The notes below the pieces were generated by a model. It did no database searches. It was not told the DNA's origin and saw only the letters and a list, made by a program, of their open reading frames with translations. Of a stretch of 64,000 nucleotides of DNA, positions 1,910 to 22,324 are shown piece by piece. The stretch comes from Escherichia coli (GTDB lineage: Bacteria > Pseudomonadota > Gammaproteobacteria > Enterobacterales > Enterobacteriaceae): the NCBI RefSeq assembly GCF_965641715.1, contig NZ_OZ282453.1; one strand, written 5' to 3'. The translations under genes were made by a program, and so were the position numbers. Numbering within the stretch: position 1 is the stretch's first letter; every line of letters begins with the position of its first letter.

Positions 1910-2620
1910 GTGAAATACAAATTACTACCATGCTTACTCGCGATATTCCTCACAGGATGTGACCGCACAGAGGTAACACTTTCATTTACCCCTGAGATGG
2001 CCAGTTTCTCTAATGAATTCGATTTTGATCCGCTGCGTGGTCCGGTAAAAGATTTCACTCAGACATTAATGGATGAGCAAGGTGAAGTGACGAAACGTGT
2101 TTCGGGGACTTTGTCGGAAGAAGGCTGTTTTGATTCACTCGAATTACTGGATCTGGAAAATAATACCGTGGTCGCTCTGGTACTGGACGCCAATTATTAT
2201 CGTGATGCCGAGACGCTGGAGAAGAGAGTACGTTTACAGGGAAAATGCCAGCTAGCAGAATTACCTTCTGCCGGGGTGAGTTGGGAAACCGATGATAATG
2301 GCTTCGTGATTAAAGCCAGCAGCAAACAAATGCAGATGGAATATCGCTATGATGATCAGGGTTATCCACTGGGTAAGACCACGAAAAGTAACGACAAAAC
2401 ATTATCTGTCAGCGCCACGCCATCAACGGACCCGATCAAAAAATTAGATTACACAGCGGTTACTTTACTGAATAATCAACGAGTTGGTAATGTAAAACAG
2501 AGCTGTGAATATGACAGTCACGCCAATCCGGTGGACTGTCAGCTGATCATTGTTGATGAAGGAGTAAAACCCGCCGTCGAACGGGTTTACACCATCAAAA
2601 ATACAATCGATTATTATTAA
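1910..2620 (+). CDS. ynfC: UPF0257 lipoprotein
   Basis: ORF 1874..2620. A GTG start gives (M)KYKLLPCLLAIFLTGC with a lipobox and the 236-aa YnfC. Confidence 0.85.
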   Translation: MKYKLLPCLLAIFLTGCDRTEVTLSFTPEMASFSNEFDFDPLRGPVKDFTQTLMDEQGEVTKRVSGTLSEEGCFDSLELLDLENNTVVALVLDANYYRDAETLEKRVRLQGKCQLAELPSAGVSWETDDNGFVIKASSKQMQMEYRYDDQGYPLGKTTKSNDKTLSVSATPSTDPIKKLDYTAVTLLNNQRVGNVKQSCEYDSHANPVDCQLIIVDEGVKPAVERVYTIKNTIDYY

Positions 2621-2622
2621 TG

Positions 2623-3183
2623 CTATTGTGCGGTCGGCTTCAGGAGAGTCTGACCCGGTGTTTTGTGCTCTGCCAGATACTGATGCTGGAATATACACAT
2701 GCGAATGGCATTACGATATTGACCATTAATAAAGAACTCATGCATCAATTCACCTTCAACCGTAAAGCCAAGCTTGCGGTAAATGTGAATCGCTTTTTCA
2801 TTCTCTTTATCGACGATCAGATACAGCTTATAGAGATTGAGAACGGTGAAGCCATAGTCCATTGCTAATTTGGCGGCACGGGTTGCCAGACCTTTCCCCT
2901 GATACTCCGGGGAGATAATTATCTGAAATTCTGCGCGGCGATGTACATGGTTAATTTCCACCAACTCCACCAGACCGGCTTTTTCGCCGTCACATTCCAC
3001 CACAAAGCGTCGTTCGCTCTGATCGTGAATATGCTTATCATACAGATCAGAGAGTTCAACAAAGGCTTCGTAGGGTTCCTCAAACCAGTAACGCATCACA
3101 CTGGCGTTATTGTCGAGTTGATGTACATAGCGTAAATCTTCACGCTCCAGCGGGCGTAGCTTAACACTGTGGGCGCTTGGCAT
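2623..3183 (-). CDS. speG: spermidine N1-acetyltransferase (GNAT)
   Basis: The 186-aa [29 protein letters not shown]... matches SpeG. Confidence 0.95.
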
Positions 3184-3217
3184 AACGTGTCCTTACATTC
3201 CTTAAATCAATAACAGG

Positions 3218-3559
3218 TTAGGGGGTAATAACGCGGCCAGTTCGACGGTCCAGGCAGCGCAAAGTATTTGGCTCCCAGTAGGCATTGATGTTGGCGCTTT
3301 GCTCACATTTATCGCGGTTATCAAAAGCGGCGTCGGCTTTATCCCACTCTTTTTCAGTGCGTTTATTCACTTTCTGGCGCAGATTGCGCGTGTCATTCCA
3401 TTGCTCTTTTTCCATAGCGGCGTGCTGGCGGCTTTGTGCACTGTCGCCAGACTCAATCACCAGTTTGTTAGTTTCGGCATGAACAGTTGTGCTCAATGCC
3501 AGTGCGCAAGGCAGCAGAAAAGCGAGCAGGCCGATTCGTTTGCTGAGAGTGATTTTCAT
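3218..3559 (-). CDS. ynfB: UPF0482 secreted protein
   Basis: 113-aa ORF with a signal peptide, in K-12 synteny between speG and ynfA. Confidence 0.85.
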
Positions 3560-3693
3560 AATTCATTCCCTGTGTGAATGATTAAAGGTGATTCTACACC
3601 ATCCACTGCGGACGCAAAACGTACCAGGAGGGTGTTTATATTGATGATATTATGTCGCCCTATAACTATACATGATGTCAATAAGTGACAAAG

Positions 3694-4020
3694 ATGATTA
3701 AAACAACGTTACTATTTTTTGCTACTGCGCTGTGTGAAATTATTGGATGCTTTCTGCCCTGGTTGTGGTTAAAACGAAACGCCAGTGTCTGGCTGTTGCT
3801 TCCGGCGGGGATTTCACTGGCGCTGTTTGTCTGGTTGTTAACGTTGCATCCTGCGGCGAGTGGGCGTGTTTACGCGGCTTATGGTGGCGTTTATGTCTGC
3901 ACGGCGTTGATGTGGCTGCGCGTTGTGGATGGCGTGAAACTGACTCTTTATGACTGGACGGGTGCGTTGATTGCGCTTTGCGGCATGTTGATCATTGTTG
4001 CGGGCTGGGGGCGCACGTAG
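3694..4020 (+). CDS. ynfA: UPF0060 small inner-membrane protein
   Basis: ATG at 3694 gives [25 protein letters not shown]..., 108 aa with 4 predicted TM segments. Confidence 0.85.
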
Positions 4021-11407: not shown

Positions 11408-11465
11408 TAAAAACGGCGGCAGAGCAGTCACGGAGTAAAACTGATACCGCCAAACGTCACCAGAA
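11408..11465 (-). ncRNA. dicF: DicF small regulatory RNA (ftsZ-targeting)
   Basis: The minus strand reads TTTCTGGTGACGTTTGGCGGTATCAGTTTTACTCCGTGACTGCTCTGCCGCCGTTTTT, which is the DicF sequence with its terminator hairpin and U-tail, directly upstream of dicB. Confidence 0.9.
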
Positions 11466-14836: not shown

Positions 14837-15238
14837 GTGGCAAAAGTTTTTACACAAGAAGAGCGGGAAAAAATTAAAGGGCAGGTGGTGGAACTCGTGC
14901 GCCAGAGCGGTCGTGAGACGTTACGGCAACTGGAAGCTAAAACAGGTGCGACTAGATATCTGATGAGCGTTCTTGCCAGAGAGCTGGTAGCCAGTGGCGA
15001 TGTATACAACTCCGGCTACGGGTTATTCCCGTCTGAACAGGCGCGTAAGGACTGGCAAAACGCCCGCAAAAAACTATCGAGGGCAAAGGTGAAGAAAACA
15101 GCTGTGGTTGATCCGGACCTTATCTGGTCGTTACCTGATGGAGAAATACGTCGCTACGACAGTCGCCTAAACATAATCTGTCGCGAGTGCCGGATGAGTG
15201 AAGTTATGCAGCGCATACTGGCATTTTATCAGGGATAA
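14837..15238 (+). CDS. hypothetical 133-aa protein (winged-helix-like N-terminus, basic linker)
   Basis: GTG-start ORF after the replication gene. No helicase-loader motifs seen. Confidence 0.5.
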   Translation: MAKVFTQEEREKIKGQVVELVRQSGRETLRQLEAKTGATRYLMSVLARELVASGDVYNSGYGLFPSEQARKDWQNARKKLSRAKVKKTAVVDPDLIWSLPDGEIRRYDSRLNIICRECRMSEVMQRILAFYQG

Positions 15239-15619
15239 TGTTAGGTATTTTAGACGTTACTAGATTAAAAAGCATTAGTTCAGGAGTGAATTGACATTCT
15301 CATTTTTCATGGCACAGGGTAGATCTGGCGTGGTTGTCCGCTTTGTGCCAAGAGCGGACGTTGGTATGCAAGAGCCCTCCAAAAGTTGATGGTTGGTTTG
15401 CAGGGGGGCTTAAAGAAACTGCACTTATCAAGTTGAAGTTCTGTATTCAGCGAAATCGTAGCACTCTGACGATAAGTAACTCCGGTACTCCGCTCTTCGA
15501 TGAAGAACCAGAGTAATCCCCCCGAAAAACCAGCGCATCAAAATTGGATCTTCAGCGGTAGCTTATCGGCTATCGGAAGTACAGGTGTGGATTCGTGGTG
15601 AATTGCTTTGATAATAAAC

Positions 15620-15645
15620 GATTAATACGGAAAAACGTATTAATC
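15620..15645. terminator. hairpin GATTAATACG-gaaaaa-CGTATTAATC, terminator of the 449-aa gene
   Basis: Perfect 10-bp inverted repeat 28 nt downstream of the stop at 15673, with T-rich flanks on the minus strand. Confidence 0.6.
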
Positions 15646-15672
15646 ATTTATTAGCTTTTAGTAAACCACAAT

Positions 15673-17022
15673 TTATTCCGTTTTACATATCATAGTAGTC
15701 GATTGGAGAATATAGTTTCTGGGAATGTACTCTTCAAAGTGTTCGTCCTTTTTAAATACATGAACTACATTTGGGAATAATTGATAGTCAACAGGGTGTA
15801 TAGCGTTTGGATTATGGTACATGTACATGGCTGTACACCATGGTTCTTGATAGTTAGGGTCACTTACATCGGCTGAAAATGGATGTGGGGCTGCATCCTG
15901 ATCAGTTTTAACACCACTGACGTACACTTTGAATCCACTCGCCTCTACACCTGCAAGAATTCCCATCCGGTTAAACTTAGGTATGGTTGCTTGAGTAGTG
16001 AGTAAAACGGCAGAAACATAATTATTTTGTTCTGAGCCAAAAAAGTTCGACTTGATACTTCTATTTTCATCTGTATGTCTTTCAATAGAAATGCCTGACT
16101 CAATATCAATCCCGTACAAATAGCTATGCAAGGCTTCGCTTGAGAAGGCCATGGACATTCTTTTTGAATAATCCTGCATTGCTATGACAAATGGTTTGTT
16201 CTTTGTATGGTTGAGTTCCCAGTAATGAACTTTCTCTGGCTCAGGGCAATGCCGGACTTTTTTTAATAAACTTCTTGCAAACTTAAAAGGCATGACATTT
16301 AGAACATGTTTTCTTAATTCATCCATCTGTTCATCGTTAATGACTTTTCTTTCAAGAGGGGCTTCTGCTTCAGCAATGCTTACAGCCTCTACAGCAATTT
16401 CCACTCCAAATTTAGATAGCAGAAAATCTGGTTGATTGTATTCTCTATTCATTTCAAAGTCGAGTTCATAAAATACAGCGTTCAAATATAATTCAAATAA
16501 CCTTGAATTAAATGCATCACTTTGAAAATCCCTTATAAATATTCCATCAGGATCTTTGAACCAGTATGCAAGTTCCTCAAGAACAATATATGCAGGGAAA
16601 TGAGGAGGGTCTTCGAGGAGCATTTTTATATAAACATTCCTTTTTTTCTCTGGGACTTTACTCAAGAATAATGAAAAAGGTTTGGTTGATTCATCGCCTT
16701 GCATGAATGTACCATTTTGGTGCTGCGCCAGCATCTTTGGTATGTCATCGTTCAAATTATTAAGCAAGACATCCATTGAATCAAATGAAGCCAAGACGTT
16801 TATTGCTCTGAATTTTTTATCTAAATCCCGACCTAAGACTATTGCGTTAAAATCTTTATCAATATTGCATATGATTATTGTGGATAACAATGTTATCCCA
16901 TTCCCCTCATATTTAAACCAGCGTATCTCCTCAGAAAATGTCTTAAGGTAAGGTGAGCGACCGTAAAAATAAATATCAAATTGTTCTTTGCTGATCTCAC
17001 TGAAGTGTAATCCTGCGTTCAT
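15673..17022 (-). CDS. 449-aa orphan cytoplasmic protein; possible degenerate PD-(D/E)xK-like nuclease core; candidate defence/abortive-infection gene
   Basis: Single long ORF with SD AAGGAA. Strongly AT-rich and opposite in orientation to the flanking phage genes. Motif string RLFE177LYL...QPD199FLLSKFGVE208IAVE212AV. No TM segment, signal peptide or Walker A motif. Confidence 0.85.
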   Translation of the reverse strand: MNAGLHFSEISKEQFDIYFYGRSPYLKTFSEEIRWFKYEGNGITLLSTIIICNIDKDFNAIVLGRDLDKKFRAINVLASFDSMDVLLNNLNDDIPKMLAQHQNGTFMQGDESTKPFSLFLSKVPEKKRNVYIKMLLEDPPHFPAYIVLEELAYWFKDPDGIFIRDFQSDAFNSRLFELYLNAVFYELDFEMNREYNQPDFLLSKFGVEIAVEAVSIAEAEAPLERKVINDEQMDELRKHVLNVMPFKFARSLLKKVRHCPEPEKVHYWELNHTKNKPFVIAMQDYSKRMSMAFSSEALHSYLYGIDIESGISIERHTDENRSIKSNFFGSEQNNYVSAVLLTTQATIPKFNRMGILAGVEASGFKVYVSGVKTDQDAAPHPFSADVSDPNYQEPWCTAMYMYHNPNAIHPVDYQLFPNVVHVFKKDEHFEEYIPRNYILQSTTMICKTE

Positions 17023-17123
17023 ACCAATTCCTTTTCAATGAATAATTGGCCTTTAGGAGTGATTCCCTTTGTCTTTAATTCAGTTCTAACTAGTTCTTTA
17101 ATCCAATAGCCTAAGCTCATCAT
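17019..17123 (-). CDS. possible 34-aa leader/partner ORF translationally coupled to the 449-aa gene
   Basis: MMSLGYWIKELVRTELKTKGITPKGQLFIEKELV. Its TGA overlaps the ATG of the 449-aa gene (GTATGAAC). No clear SD. Confidence 0.25.
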   Translation of the reverse strand: MMSLGYWIKELVRTELKTKGITPKGQLFIEKELV

Positions 17124-17163
17124 GCAGTTGGATCATAAGACAACGCCCTATAGTGCTCGTGAT

Positions 17164-17191
17164 ACTATAGGGCATCTGACCACACTGTTAA
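17164..17191 (-). promoter_or_regulatory. predicted sigma70 promoter of the 449-aa gene (TTAACA-N16-TATAGT)
   Basis: On the minus strand the -35 is at 17186-17191 and the -10 at 17164-17169. The -10 lies inside the palindrome at 17145-17173. Confidence 0.45.
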
Positions 17192-17464
17192 CTGGAGTAA
17201 CGACTATGGCAGGAATACAGCATAACCAAACTCACCCCAAACTTACATAGCGCTTTCTGGCCGTGAGCATAACAAGGTCCACTCCTCGCTCAAAGCGGAC
17301 TAGAAGGTTAGCTTGTGTCGGACTTTGCGTATTAAATGACTAGTGGTTGAGCCCCATTTCCACAGAAAAAATCAGAGAAACTATACCCAATAGTTGTATT
17401 GAATCACTGACGAGACAGCCTCATATTCATCAGGACTGGTGTACGTCCAATACAGGAGGTTGTG

Positions 17465-17554
17465 GTGCTGGTTCTCAAATGTGCGCTGGCTATTACGGCT
17501 GTAATGGCGATTTATTGTCTTGCTATTGTTCTTATGGATCGCCTTTCTGACTGA
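17465..17554 (+). CDS. 29-aa hydrophobic peptide (30 aa if started at the adjacent GTG 17462): small membrane protein / type I toxin-like
   Basis: AGGAGG (17454-17459) lies 5 nt before GTG 17465. (M)LVLKCALAITAVMAIYCLAIVLMDRLSD, stop at 17552-17554. Confidence 0.45.
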   Translation: MLVLKCALAITAVMAIYCLAIVLMDRLSD

Positions 17555-17649
17555 TTTCACATTGGCGAGGTAACGGTAGTTAAGTAGAATGGCTGCGGGT
17601 GCTTGAGGCTATCTGCCTCGGGCATGAACACCAACGGCAGATAGAGAAA

Positions 17650-17717
17650 AGCCCCAGTTAACATTACGCGTCCTGCAAGACGCTTAACATTAATCTGAGG
17701 CCAATTTCATGCTAGAC
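17650..17717 (-). ncRNA. sok: Sok-like antisense RNA (approximate limits)
   Basis: Minus-strand promoter TTGCCT (17747-17752)-N17-TAACCT (17724-17729), antisense to the mok start region. The 3' end was not determined. Confidence 0.35.
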
Positions 17718-17921
17718 ACATGTAGGTTAGCCTCTTACGTGCCGAAAGGCAAGGAGAAGCAGGCTATGAAGCAGCAAAAGGCGATGTTAATCGCCCTGAT
17801 CGTCATCTGTTTAACCGTCATAGTGACGGCACTGGTAACGAGGAAAGACCTCTGCGAGGTACGAATCCGAACCGGGCAGACGGAGGTCGCTGTCTTCACA
17901 GCTTACGAACCTGAGGAGTAA
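17709..17921 (+). CDS. mok: Mok (modulator of killing) reading frame overlapping hok
   Basis: 70-aa ORF that starts upstream of hok and reads through it in the same frame. This is standard hok/mok architecture. Confidence 0.6.
   Translation: MLDTCRLASYVPKGKEKQAMKQQKAMLIALIVICLTVIVTALVTRKDLCEVRIRTGQTEVAVFTAYEPEE
17766..17921 (+). CDS. hokD: Hok/Gef-family type I membrane toxin
   Basis: MKQQKAMLIALIVICLTVIVTALVTRKDLCEVRIRTGQTEVAVFTAYEPEE (51 aa). Confidence 0.9.
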   Translation: MKQQKAMLIALIVICLTVIVTALVTRKDLCEVRIRTGQTEVAVFTAYEPEE

Positions 17922-21133: not shown

Positions 21134-21209
21134 GGCCCTTTAGCTCAGTGGTGAGAGCGAGCGACTCATAATCGCCAGGTCGCTGGTTCAAATCCAGCAA
21201 GGGCCACCA
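21134..21209 (+). tRNA. ileZ: tRNA-Ile2 (anticodon CAU, ileX/ileZ-like)
   Basis: Manual cloverleaf with acceptor GGCCCTT/AAGGGCC, anticodon loop CTCATAA, T-loop TTCAAAT and a 3' CCA. Close to E. coli ileX. Confidence 0.85.
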
Positions 21210-21309: not shown

Positions 21310-21386
21310 GCGTTGTTAGCTCAGCCGGACAGAGCAATTGCCTTCTAAGCAATCGGTCACTGGTTCGAATCCAGTACAGCGCGCCA
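21310..21386 (+). tRNA. argO: tRNA-Arg (anticodon UCU)
   Basis: Acceptor GCGTTGT/ACAGCGC, anticodon stem ATTGC/GCAAT with loop CTTCTAA, T-loop TTCGAAT, CCA end. Confidence 0.85.
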
Positions 21387-21850: not shown

Positions 21851-22324
21851 ATACATATCTGGATTATCACCTGTTACGGTAAAAAGTGATTGCTTACTGT
21901 TTTTGTGAATGGCATTGCAGCAGCCGGATAATGTCAGTGCTGGCTGACGGTGTGCTGGTGGCGGGTGTGGTGGTTGTTGCTTTCCCGTTGCTGAAAAAGA
22001 AAACGCCAGACTGTTAGCCGGGTATCAGTTAGCGGGAGAAATTTTTAAATACTTCACAATTCAGGCGGTTGACTGTTCTCTGGTTTGCGGGGAGTTTGTT
22101 AAAAGAAACTGGCATGGTGAATCCCCCTGTGCGGAGGGGCAATCAGCGAGTAGGTATATGGGATAATCGCGGATTCAGGTGCTGGTACTGAATTCACCGG
22201 GAGGCACCCGGCACCATGCACTTCAATAGATTCTCTCCACATTATGGATATTCTTTCAGAATATCCCACGCAGACTTTGTGTAAATGTTAACAAATGTGC
22301 GTTTTATTTGATCTGATTCGCTGT

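Follow-up and report, generated by a model that had tools for sequence, protein, structure and literature searches.

The minus-strand gene described here, found in a stretch of 64,000 nucleotides of Escherichia coli DNA (contig NZ_OZ282453.1; hereafter called the window), is a real anti-phage defence gene, yet one that is already known and not new. It is very probably a copy of the single-gene system PD-T7-1 that travels as cargo of a Qin/mEp460-like lambdoid prophage, and we are almost certain that the gene functions as a PD-T7-1 defence system. A first-pass annotation of this DNA had proposed an undescribed anti-phage defence gene. The defence assignment stands with the membership in PD-T7-1, while the word undescribed has to be dropped, since this system was found and validated in E. 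coli by Vassallo et al. (2022).

When scored against the PADLOC profile for PD-T7-1 (PDLC04073), the 449-amino-acid protein matched from end to end, with residues 8–447 covering positions 2–448 of the 452-position profile (E = 4.2e-157; 521.5 bits); judged by this match, it is a full-length member of the PD-T7-1 family. Residues 117–427 also matched the PADLOC profile for PD-T7-5 (PDLC04110; E = 1.2e-40), and both profiles were matched by each of the 38 homologues that we aligned. The description of the protein as an orphan that was not recognised as any named defence family can thus not be upheld, because the PADLOC check places it over its full length in a family that comprises 2,781 clusters at 50% identity. 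Among 5,426 complete genomes of E. coli, 200 (about 3.7%) contain PD-T7-1. Sequence-profile searches of Pfam, NCBIfam and the PDB, conducted with the protein and with the alignment, yielded no match, and RefSeq still lists the protein as a 'hypothetical protein'; its annotation should read PD-T7-1, a validated defence system.

The Nat Microbiol report (Vassallo et al., 2022; PMC9519451) traces PD-T7-1 to E. coli strain ECOR46, in which its coding sequence (RCQ85672.1) is labelled 'Nuclease'. According to this report, PD-T7-1 was selected on phage T7 and tested in K-12 as a single open reading frame with its native promoter, protected more strongly against T2, T4 and T6 than against T7, and left adsorption unaffected. 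The clone (2138–3835) surrounds the reading frame (2183–3533) with flanks of about 300 bp and 45 bp; if the ECOR46 gene had the same orientation as the gene studied here, the cloned 300 bp would lie on its 5′ side and would cover the predicted promoter described below. The discoverers already pointed out the weak Hjc/PD-(D/E)xK similarity of residues 171–219; their HHpred analysis returned Hjc with 80% probability for residues 177–219, along with PDDEXK_5, FokI_C, Vsr and RmuC. In an independent study of NILS69, a PD-T7-1 copy protected against PDP351_P2 (a Teseptimavirus) and shrank T7 plaques, an effect that was seen upon expression in K-12 and not from a native deletion. The literature that we searched contained no nuclease assay and no catalytic mutant of PD-T7-1.

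The gene and the signals that accompany it are arranged as follows:

15336 to 17300, no strand assigned: whole mobile cassette, 1,965 bp, 38.6% G+C
15336 to 15359, no strand assigned: left boundary hairpin with loop type A (GTCCGCTTTGTGCCAAGAGCGGAC); single-stranded DNA fold of -8.4 kcal/mol, z = -3.8
15531 to 15611, plus strand: C-terminal fragment of an AlpA-family regulator, annotated as a pseudo-CDS by RefSeq in identical loci
15612 to 15653, minus strand: AT-rich hairpin with 18-bp arms, 19 nt after the stop codon
15673 to 17022, minus strand: gene for the PD-T7-1 defence protein, 1350 nt, ATG start, 449 amino acids
17028 to 17033, minus strand: Shine-Dalgarno sequence AAGGAA, 5 nt upstream of the ATG, read from the sequence
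17145 to 17173, no strand assigned: perfect 10-bp inverted repeat GCCCTATAGT-N9-ACTATAGGGC, overlapping the -10 hexamer
17164 to 17191, minus strand: predicted sigma-70-like promoter TTAACA-N16-TATAGT, matching the consensus at 10 of 12 positions
17277 to 17300, no strand assigned: right boundary hairpin with loop type B (minus strand GTCCGCTTTGAGCGAGGAGTGGAC); dG -3.9, z -1.5

All flanking genes lie on the plus strand, so that the single gene is transcribed against all of its neighbours, as had been noted in the first-pass annotation. RefSeq annotation of a 99.9%-identical locus identifies these neighbours as YdaT, a replication protein and DUF977 to the left, and hokD, rem, ydfU, rusA and Q to the right. 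The AT-rich composition that had drawn attention to the gene is borne out as well: the reading frame has a G+C content of 36.5%, as compared with 48–51% for the modules on either side and 48.9% for the window. The cassette holds only this one 449-codon reading frame, and the next longest frames (82–89 amino acids) lie inside it on the opposite strand; hence, there is no partner gene within the 1,965 bp, in keeping with the single-gene nature of PD-T7-1, and a small co-oriented partner frame of the kind found in type II toxin-antitoxin loci is absent from the locus.

Each of the expression signals predicted earlier is present. The promoter hexamers are plausible as a promoter candidate and are not a demonstrated promoter, because the region has no clear excess of promoter-like sites (11, with 6.7 ± 2.4 expected). 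The inverted repeat that overlaps the -10 hexamer folds as single-stranded DNA with -9.0 kcal/mol (z = -4.7) and is identical across all cassette copies compared; it is a possible operator. Just downstream of the -10 hexamer lies CACTATAGGG (17146–17155), which occurs once in the window with 0.06 occurrences expected. We considered whether it might be a promoter for T7 RNA polymerase through which T7 would switch on the gene. This is unlikely, because it mismatches the T7 consensus at all of the positions -8 to -11, which determine specificity, and because the motif is also an arm of the perfect palindrome. Downstream of the gene, the 10-bp hairpin reported earlier (15620–15645) is real and longer than had been claimed, as it extends to arms of 18 nt (15612–15629 and 15636–15653) that are 94% complementary. 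Folded as RNA, it reaches -19.7 kcal/mol (z = -4.0), and its tail (GTTTATTAT) is T-rich with no clean U-run; this element is likely to serve as a terminator or to form the 3′ end of the mRNA.

The gene resides in a discrete mobile cassette whose ends form a 34-nt inverted repeat (arms 15336–15369 and 17267–17300; 82% complementary). Using blastn, we recovered the exact cassette from the P2-like Yersinia phage vB_YpM_46 (98.9% identical) and from the Morganella phage IME1369_01 (96.1–96.2% identical), in both of which its flanks are unrelated; the homology with these two phages stops at 15336/15338 and at 17301. A copy in E. coli DJH_183 (99.5% identical; blastn) is part of a larger island, where it occupies the same slot between DUF977 and hokD and is placed between other cargo. 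The translation of the AlpA remnant, which is part of the cassette, ends with ...KIGSSAVAYRLSEVQVWIRGELL*; an intact, convergently oriented alpA gene follows the homologues found in integrase islands of Serratia and Enterobacter. Collectively, these observations agree with the view, already put forward from composition and orientation, that we are dealing with a self-contained and horizontally acquired single-gene moron, an AT-rich cassette that recurs in unrelated phages.

Within the terminal repeats, the boundary hairpins A and B are 24 bp long and inverted relative to each other, and type B folds more weakly than type A. The type-A hairpin is also found at the border of different cargo in this slot (loci L003 and L006), the type-B hairpin also closes other cassettes, and a conserved 18-nt linker (CTTYAGCTCAGTKAYMTC) separates hairpin B from hairpin A of adjacent cassettes. 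On more than 120 viral contigs, these hairpins enclose other cargo as well, namely DarT, Pycsar, Tmn, the TIR candidate PDC-S35 and many unknown genes. Sequence changes in the hairpin are mostly wobble-compatible single changes (at one pair, T.G 18 versus C.A 2) with few double compensations; this covariation is no more than suggestive, and the copies are not independent of each other. We did not call the boundary hairpins as terminators since T-runs do not follow them. Nor did we call the cassette an IS-like transposon, as no target-site duplication is evident in the flanks and different cargos share only the 24-bp hairpins.

The host element is a Qin/mEp460-like lambdoid prophage, and its DUF977-hokD slot is a site of variable cargo. 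Most otherwise collinear prophages lack the gene and have unrelated cargo in its place: a DUF4209 protein (PADLOC candidate PDC-S39; E = 8e-103), an Sll1717 P-loop ATPase or a DUF5677 protein. In Qin of K-12, relB-relE directly adjoins hokD. The earlier recognition of relBE as the occupant of the equivalent Qin slot, and of such inter-module positions as hotspots for cargo and defence genes, was therefore well founded. Homologues reside in islands with integrase and AlpA genes and in satellite-like elements, among them a Serratia homologue beside a PIN-TPR-GreABC protein. Several distant homologues have no obvious defence neighbours, and the mixed neighbourhoods of the distant homologues do not by themselves prove enrichment in defence islands.

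The AF2 model of the 449-residue protein (pLDDT 90.6; pTM 0.90) shows three domains:

Residues about 8 to 100: N-terminal alpha+beta domain
Residues about 125 to 345: PD-(D/E)xK-like core
Residues about 360 to 447: C-terminal beta-rich domain

The modelled core consists of a helix (171–186), strands at 190–192, 200–204 and 207–216, a second helix (230–257) and a strand (278–284), and a domain-only model reproduced the same elements of secondary structure. This model supports a PD-(D/E)xK-like nuclease fold, as had been guessed from the spacing of the residues E177, D199, E208 and E212, whose numbering was correct (KPFVIAMQDY follows at 276–285). Among the 38 aligned homologues E177, P198-D199, E212-A213 and K255 are invariant, while E208 varies among family members and drops out of the proposed site. 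The canonical lysine is absent, as had been remarked: the motif reads E212-A-V214, with V214 at the position of the lysine. The invariant K255 on the following helix is a candidate to replace it. A C-terminal motif, H403-N404-P405, was recorded alongside the invariant residues. The protein is devoid of a Walker A motif, and its highest 19-residue hydrophobicity (1.36) is that of a protein without a transmembrane segment, in agreement with the first-pass annotation. A PHROG profile for Holliday-junction resolvases touches residues 196–239 weakly (E = 0.23). In the structural comparison, CdiA-CT toxins matched the core best; McrC and MspJI are also among the fold matches.

From these features, we envisage that in a lysogen the gene would be driven by the sigma-70 promoter of the cassette itself, in antisense to the early and late operons of the phage and without depending on them. 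The 449-residue protein would then act as a stand-alone effector whose central PD-(D/E)xK domain uses E177, D199 and E212, with K255 probably taking the place of the canonical lysine, while the N-terminal and C-terminal domains most likely contribute target recognition or activation. Upon infection by a T-even or T7-like phage, the enzyme would block phage production by cleaving nucleic acid, phage DNA being the most likely substrate. We lean towards the view that catalysis of nucleic-acid cleavage at the E177/D199/E212 site underlies the defence.

The protein might instead be an abortive-infection toxin that, once triggered, destroys nucleic acids of host and phage alike (e.g., tRNA or chromosomal DNA). 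We regard this as rather unlikely; in its favour are the structural matches of the core to CdiA-CT toxins, of which that from Burkholderia pseudomallei 1026b is a tRNase and that from EC869 a DNase. No methylase or other partner for discriminating self from non-self is encoded in the cassette, and protection spans T7, whose DNA is described as unmodified, and the T-even phages with their modified cytosine; targeting of both argues against recognition of one DNA chemistry. In the discovery study, 12 of the 21 systems behaved as Abi, but 7 of the 11 nuclease-like systems conferred direct immunity (Vassallo et al., 2022; PMC9519451), and a toxin would have to be reconciled with stable carriage under an apparently constitutive promoter, without an antitoxin, in the 200 complete E. 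coli genomes.

A modification-dependent, Type IV-like restriction enzyme, with flanking domains that recognize modified bases and a PD-(D/E)xK core that does the cutting, seems improbable to us. The stronger protection against T-even phages than against T7 (Vassallo et al., 2022), the single protein without a methylase, the McrC and MspJI fold matches and a 2026 review that places PD-T7-1 among the restriction-modification systems would suit such an enzyme, but the system was selected on the unmodified DNA of T7, Pfam and fold searches revealed no known modified-base reader domain (SRA, YTH etc.), and the discoverers see no resemblance to Type IV systems in any of their orphan DNase-like proteins. 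That the gene merely resembles defence cargo and encodes an ordinary phage housekeeping nuclease for recombination or junction resolution is hardly credible. The weak similarity to Holliday-junction resolvases and the adjacent replication module hint in this direction; yet the prophage already possesses RusA, most collinear prophages do without the gene, the AT-rich cassette moves among unrelated phages and non-phage islands, and a defence phenotype has been published for the family. For the favoured reading as a nuclease-based defence protein, E177, D199, E212, K255 and H403-N404-P405, together with the three-domain model, provide concrete targets for mutagenesis.

Three different phage backgrounds, namely the lambdoid prophage, the P2-like phage and the Morganella phage, share one cassette, which shows that unrelated phages have recently exchanged a defence gene; its hairpin boundaries are an inexpensive sequence mark by which temperate phages can be searched for new defence cargo. 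We tentatively raise the possibility, which we hold to be doubtful, that hairpins A and B and the linker between them are sites of a dedicated and still active recombination process, possibly acting on single-stranded hairpins, that moves cassettes of one to three genes. If so, defence cassettes would pass in this way among temperate phages, P2-like and lambdoid ones included, in the manner of an integron that has no linked integrase, and hairpin-bounded cargo of no known family would constitute a ready list of new defence genes. The P2 fun(Z) repeats were already reported in 2004; new would be only the breadth of their occurrence, the grammar of the cassette arrays and their connection with modern defence systems.

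Among known systems, PD-T7-1 of ECOR46 is the closest counterpart: both genes are single-gene units with a promoter of their own (here a predicted one) and are found in E. coli prophages and islands, the listed lengths of the reading frames differ by 1 nt (1,351 nt as listed versus 1,350 nt, compared by length only), in both proteins residues of about 171–219 give a weak Hjc/PD-(D/E)xK signal, and we found no structural difference. PD-T7-5, likewise a single-gene putative nuclease selected on T7, shares the core and the C-terminal module, but it lacks the N-terminal domain of roughly 115 residues (profile of 346 positions; reading frame of about 390 amino acids), and the protein studied here scores far higher on the PD-T7-1 model. 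Other defence effectors that are single PD-(D/E)xK proteins (Shedu SduA, Upx, the nuclease domains of Avs4 and Cap4) and the CdiA-CT toxins have no detectable sequence similarity to it and differ in their accessory domains, and we claim no membership in these groups; unlike in those PD-(D/E)xK effectors, its lysine is not at the (D/E)xK position. The relBE genes of K-12 Qin are also accessory cargo without a phage function between the early region and hokD, but these two genes make up a type II toxin-antitoxin operon that points the same way as hokD, whereas a single, oppositely oriented gene without an antitoxin is found here.

For the cassette as a whole, the nearest precedent is P2 fun(Z), around which inverted repeats were described by Nilsson et al. 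(2004), as summarized in one sentence of a review (PMC8987985). In the P2 sequence, we find a type-A hairpin after gene G and a degenerate type-B hairpin before FI, so that, judged by this sequence and the review's sentence, our boundary hairpins match the repeats of 2004. The Z/fun locus is named a second P2 defence hotspot by Vassallo et al. (PMC9519451), and in Yersinia phage vB_YpM_46 the PD-T7-1 cassette sits at this very position. As in P2, the cargo is bracketed by the same two inverted hairpin types, at which homology between hosts ends; unlike P2 fun(Z), the cassette described here occupies the DUF977-hokD slot of a lambdoid prophage, and its cargo is PD-T7-1 instead of fun.

The PD-T7-1 gene, an ATG-initiated open reading frame of 449 codons read from the window at 15673-17022 on the minus strand and carried by a 1,965-bp cassette (15336-17300) in the DUF977-hokD slot of the prophage, runs against its substantial neighbours, all of which are on the plus strand. 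Its G+C content is 36.5% (48-51% in the flanking modules), a promoter-like site, a Shine-Dalgarno sequence and a 3' hairpin are each present, and neither a Walker A motif nor a hydrophobic segment was found in the 449-aa protein. The first-pass annotation had reported an AT-rich, reverse-oriented gene with its own expression signals and a product free of Walker A and transmembrane segments, and had placed relBE at the equivalent slot of K-12 Qin, where relB-relE indeed adjoins hokD; the feature is real and was accurately described. In the RefSeq chromosome of E. coli P15-385, our reference annotation (99.9% identical across 15400-17400), the counterpart region is annotated as a prophage whose integration adjoins rspB, in the order int, xis, exo, ydfD, dicB, repressor, cro, YdaT, replication protein, DUF977, an opposite-strand "hypothetical protein" (the PD-T7-1 counterpart), hokD, rem, ydfU, rusA, Q and two tRNAs. 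The stretch 15000-17800 is collinear with, and 99.9% identical to, Escherichia phage mEp460_ev081 (L008). The accompanying features are:

11414-11465, minus strand, DicF sRNA (Rfam)
15531-15611, plus strand, C-terminal remnant of an AlpA-family regulator gene, in the cassette just past the 3' hairpin
17145-17173, minus strand, perfect 10-bp palindrome GCCCTATAGT-N9-ACTATAGGGC, overlapping the -10 hexamer of the PD-T7-1 gene promoter
17597-17921, hok/sok locus beside the cassette (Rfam sok at 17597-17771, 115 bits)
21134-21206 and 21310-21383, plus strand, two tRNA genes downstream of Q
22083-22273, plus strand, STnc100 sRNA (Rfam)

DicF, the tRNA pair and STnc100 are ordinary for prophages of the Qin/mEp460 type, and hokD is annotated as a pseudogene with an internal stop in the 99.9%-identical RefSeq locus. 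The palindrome, unchanged across every cassette copy compared, may be an operator; one arm yields CACTATAGGG, which corresponds to positions -7 to +3 (the core) of T7 RNA polymerase promoters, whereas positions -8 to -11 all mismatch.

Searches of Pfam and NCBIfam with the 449-aa protein gave no match, and PHROGs matched it to an unnamed family only. PADLOC identified it as PD-T7-1 (E=4.2e-157; residues 8-447 against profile positions 2-448 of 452), with the PD-T7-5 model as second match (residues 117-427). PD-T7-1, published and validated in 2022, is one of 21 systems obtained when genomic libraries of E. coli were put through a functional selection; it stems from strain ECOR46 (CDS RCQ85672.1) and was cloned as a lone ORF under its native promoter (Vassallo et al. 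2022, PMC9519451). The span listed for the ECOR46 ORF, 2183-3533, differs in length by no more than 1 nt from the 1,350-nt ORF in the window. In a later study, a copy from NILS69 in K-12 gave protection against a Teseptimavirus and smaller T7 plaques. The earlier suggestion of an undescribed orphan therefore fails, while that of an anti-phage function was right: PD-T7-1 had its name and its experimental validation beforehand, and the standard tools for defence annotation cover it.

A word-indexed search recovered 205 homologue clusters (60-94% identity in Enterobacteria, about 50% in Pseudomonas/Burkholderia, 35% in a further group), and an exhaustive profile search 2,781 clusters (50% identity) at E up to 1e-3, 652 of them at E up to 1e-30. 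Among the positions that never vary in an alignment of 38 sequences are E177, P198-D199, E212-A213, K255, D284, H316, R352, E393, W395 and H403-N404-P405; three of the four acidic residues singled out previously are among them, but E208 varies. The AlphaFold model built from this alignment (pLDDT 90.6, pTM 0.90) has three parts: an N-terminal alpha+beta domain (about residues 8-100), a core with a helical lead-in, helix 171-186, strands 190-192, 200-204 and 207-216, helix 230-257 and strand 278-284, and a C-terminal beta-rich domain (about residues 360-447). E177 lies on the first core helix and E212 on the third core strand, with P198-D199 directly ahead of the second strand. This predicted layout is that of a textbook PD-(D/E)xK core, except that V214 occupies the position of the canonical lysine; a candidate substitute is K255, invariant and carried by the following helix. 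Fold searches with the whole protein were uninformative; the modelled layout and the invariant E177, D199 and E212 support the PD-(D/E)xK fold guessed earlier, and the corresponding catalytic chemistry is probable. The published HHpred table gives low-probability matches at residues 135-220 to Hjc (80%), PDDEXK_5, BsuBI/PstI, FokI_C, Vsr and RmuC (Vassallo et al. 2022, PMC9519451); later papers class PD-T7-1 with single-gene PD-(D/E)xK systems and describe its RmuC similarity as poor. Many relatives (e.g., proteins P0167, P0188, P0210 and P0215) start at the nuclease core, profile positions 110-450 aligning to their residues 3-350, and are extended at the C terminus by about 100 residues that the profile matches as a separate, second segment; others, PD-T7-5-like and about 345-380 aa long, consist of the core only. 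Hence, the N-terminal domain seems to be exchangeable or permuted.

The literature that we searched contained no mechanism for PD-T7-1. We propose that it would act as a stand-alone, constitutively expressed nuclease that cleaves phage nucleic acid upon infection, its flanking domains supplying recognition or activation. The main rival is an abortive-infection variant, in which cleavage, once triggered, would be indiscriminate. T7 DNA carries no modification, which makes a Type IV-like reader of modified DNA less likely.

Joined flanks of the slot were searched against 5,426 complete E. coli genomes. Its content differs between prophages: besides relBE in K-12, occupants are a DUF7380/DUF4209 protein (PADLOC candidate PDC-S39, E=8e-103), a P-loop ATPase of the Sll1717 family, a DUF5677 protein and a multi-cassette island with PD-T7-1 among its cargo. 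At least 80% of 15400-17400 is present in 200 of these genomes (3.7%), and the exact protein sat in the same slot in 24 of 24 contigs read. A Serratia homologue resides in a P4-type integrase island, where an intact AlpA gene in convergent orientation and a PIN-TPR-GreABC/HetE-N pair come after it, and an Enterobacter homologue in a within-prophage int-alpA satellite-like element. In both, intact AlpA occupies the matching relative position, which explains the remnant at 15531-15611 and suggests that the cassette derives from a P4-type integrase/AlpA element. A Burkholderia homologue has an AAA_15/AAA_21 ATPase nearby; next to two distant homologues, no obvious defence genes were seen. In Pseudomonas fluorescens HK44, the homologue (51% identical) overlaps an upstream reverse transcriptase gene by 4 nt (locus L139, 6748-8004 and 8001-9410; PADLOC RT, RT_UG17 E=4e-35), a single example that may represent a two-gene RT-plus-nuclease defence variant.

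The P2-like Yersinia phage vB_YpM_46 (98.9% identity) and Morganella phage IME1369_01 (96%) share exactly 15336/15338-17301 with the window and are unrelated to it outside. These limits coincide with a 34-nt inverted repeat, whose outer 24 bp form hairpins GTCCGCT-N10-AGCGGAC with two loop types:

15336-15359, left boundary, type A (..TGTGCCA..)
17277-17300, right boundary, type B (..TGAGCGA.., other strand)

The same hairpins bound other cargos of the slot. Among the matches listed from a pattern scan of IMG/VR (at least 120 contigs), at least 42 pairs follow the order A, 0.85-5.8 kb of cargo, B reversed; 12 of 14 junctions between adjacent cassettes read B reversed, an 18-nt linker (CTTYAGCTCAGTKAYMTC) and A; and at least 53 loci carry P2 markers and at least 28 lambdoid markers.

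The cargo, at least 24 clusters in more than 120 viral contigs, comprises PD-T7-1, DarT with a partner gene, a Pycsar cyclase with an adjoining 177-aa ORF, Tmn, a TIR candidate (PDC-S35), a RES-domain protein, and protease-like and MBL-like proteins whose domains match those in known defence proteins; judged from sequence only, an MFS-transporter-like membrane protein and an alpha/beta-hydrolase-like protein are non-defence cargo. In a PADLOC scan of 20 representative proteins, 12 had no match, and most of these had none in Pfam either (one has a RES domain). Examples are L092 234-1431, L098 8697-10427, L125 3487-6761, L094 274-2121, L023 6741-9253, L048 11521-13895 and L069 996-3122 (locus handles). 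Because of their position in hairpin cassettes, we regard the PADLOC-unmatched cargo as candidate new defence genes. What remains of value is the mechanism of PD-T7-1 and the hairpin-bounded cassette as a signature with which to mine defence cargo.

Inverted repeats around P2 fun(Z) were reported in 2004 (Nilsson et al., summarised in PMC8987985). In the P2 sequence, gene G is followed by a type-A hairpin and FI is preceded by a degenerate one of type B; the cassette hairpins match the repeats around fun(Z), so that, as far as the summary relates the earlier report, the hairpin-bounded arrangement is not wholly new.
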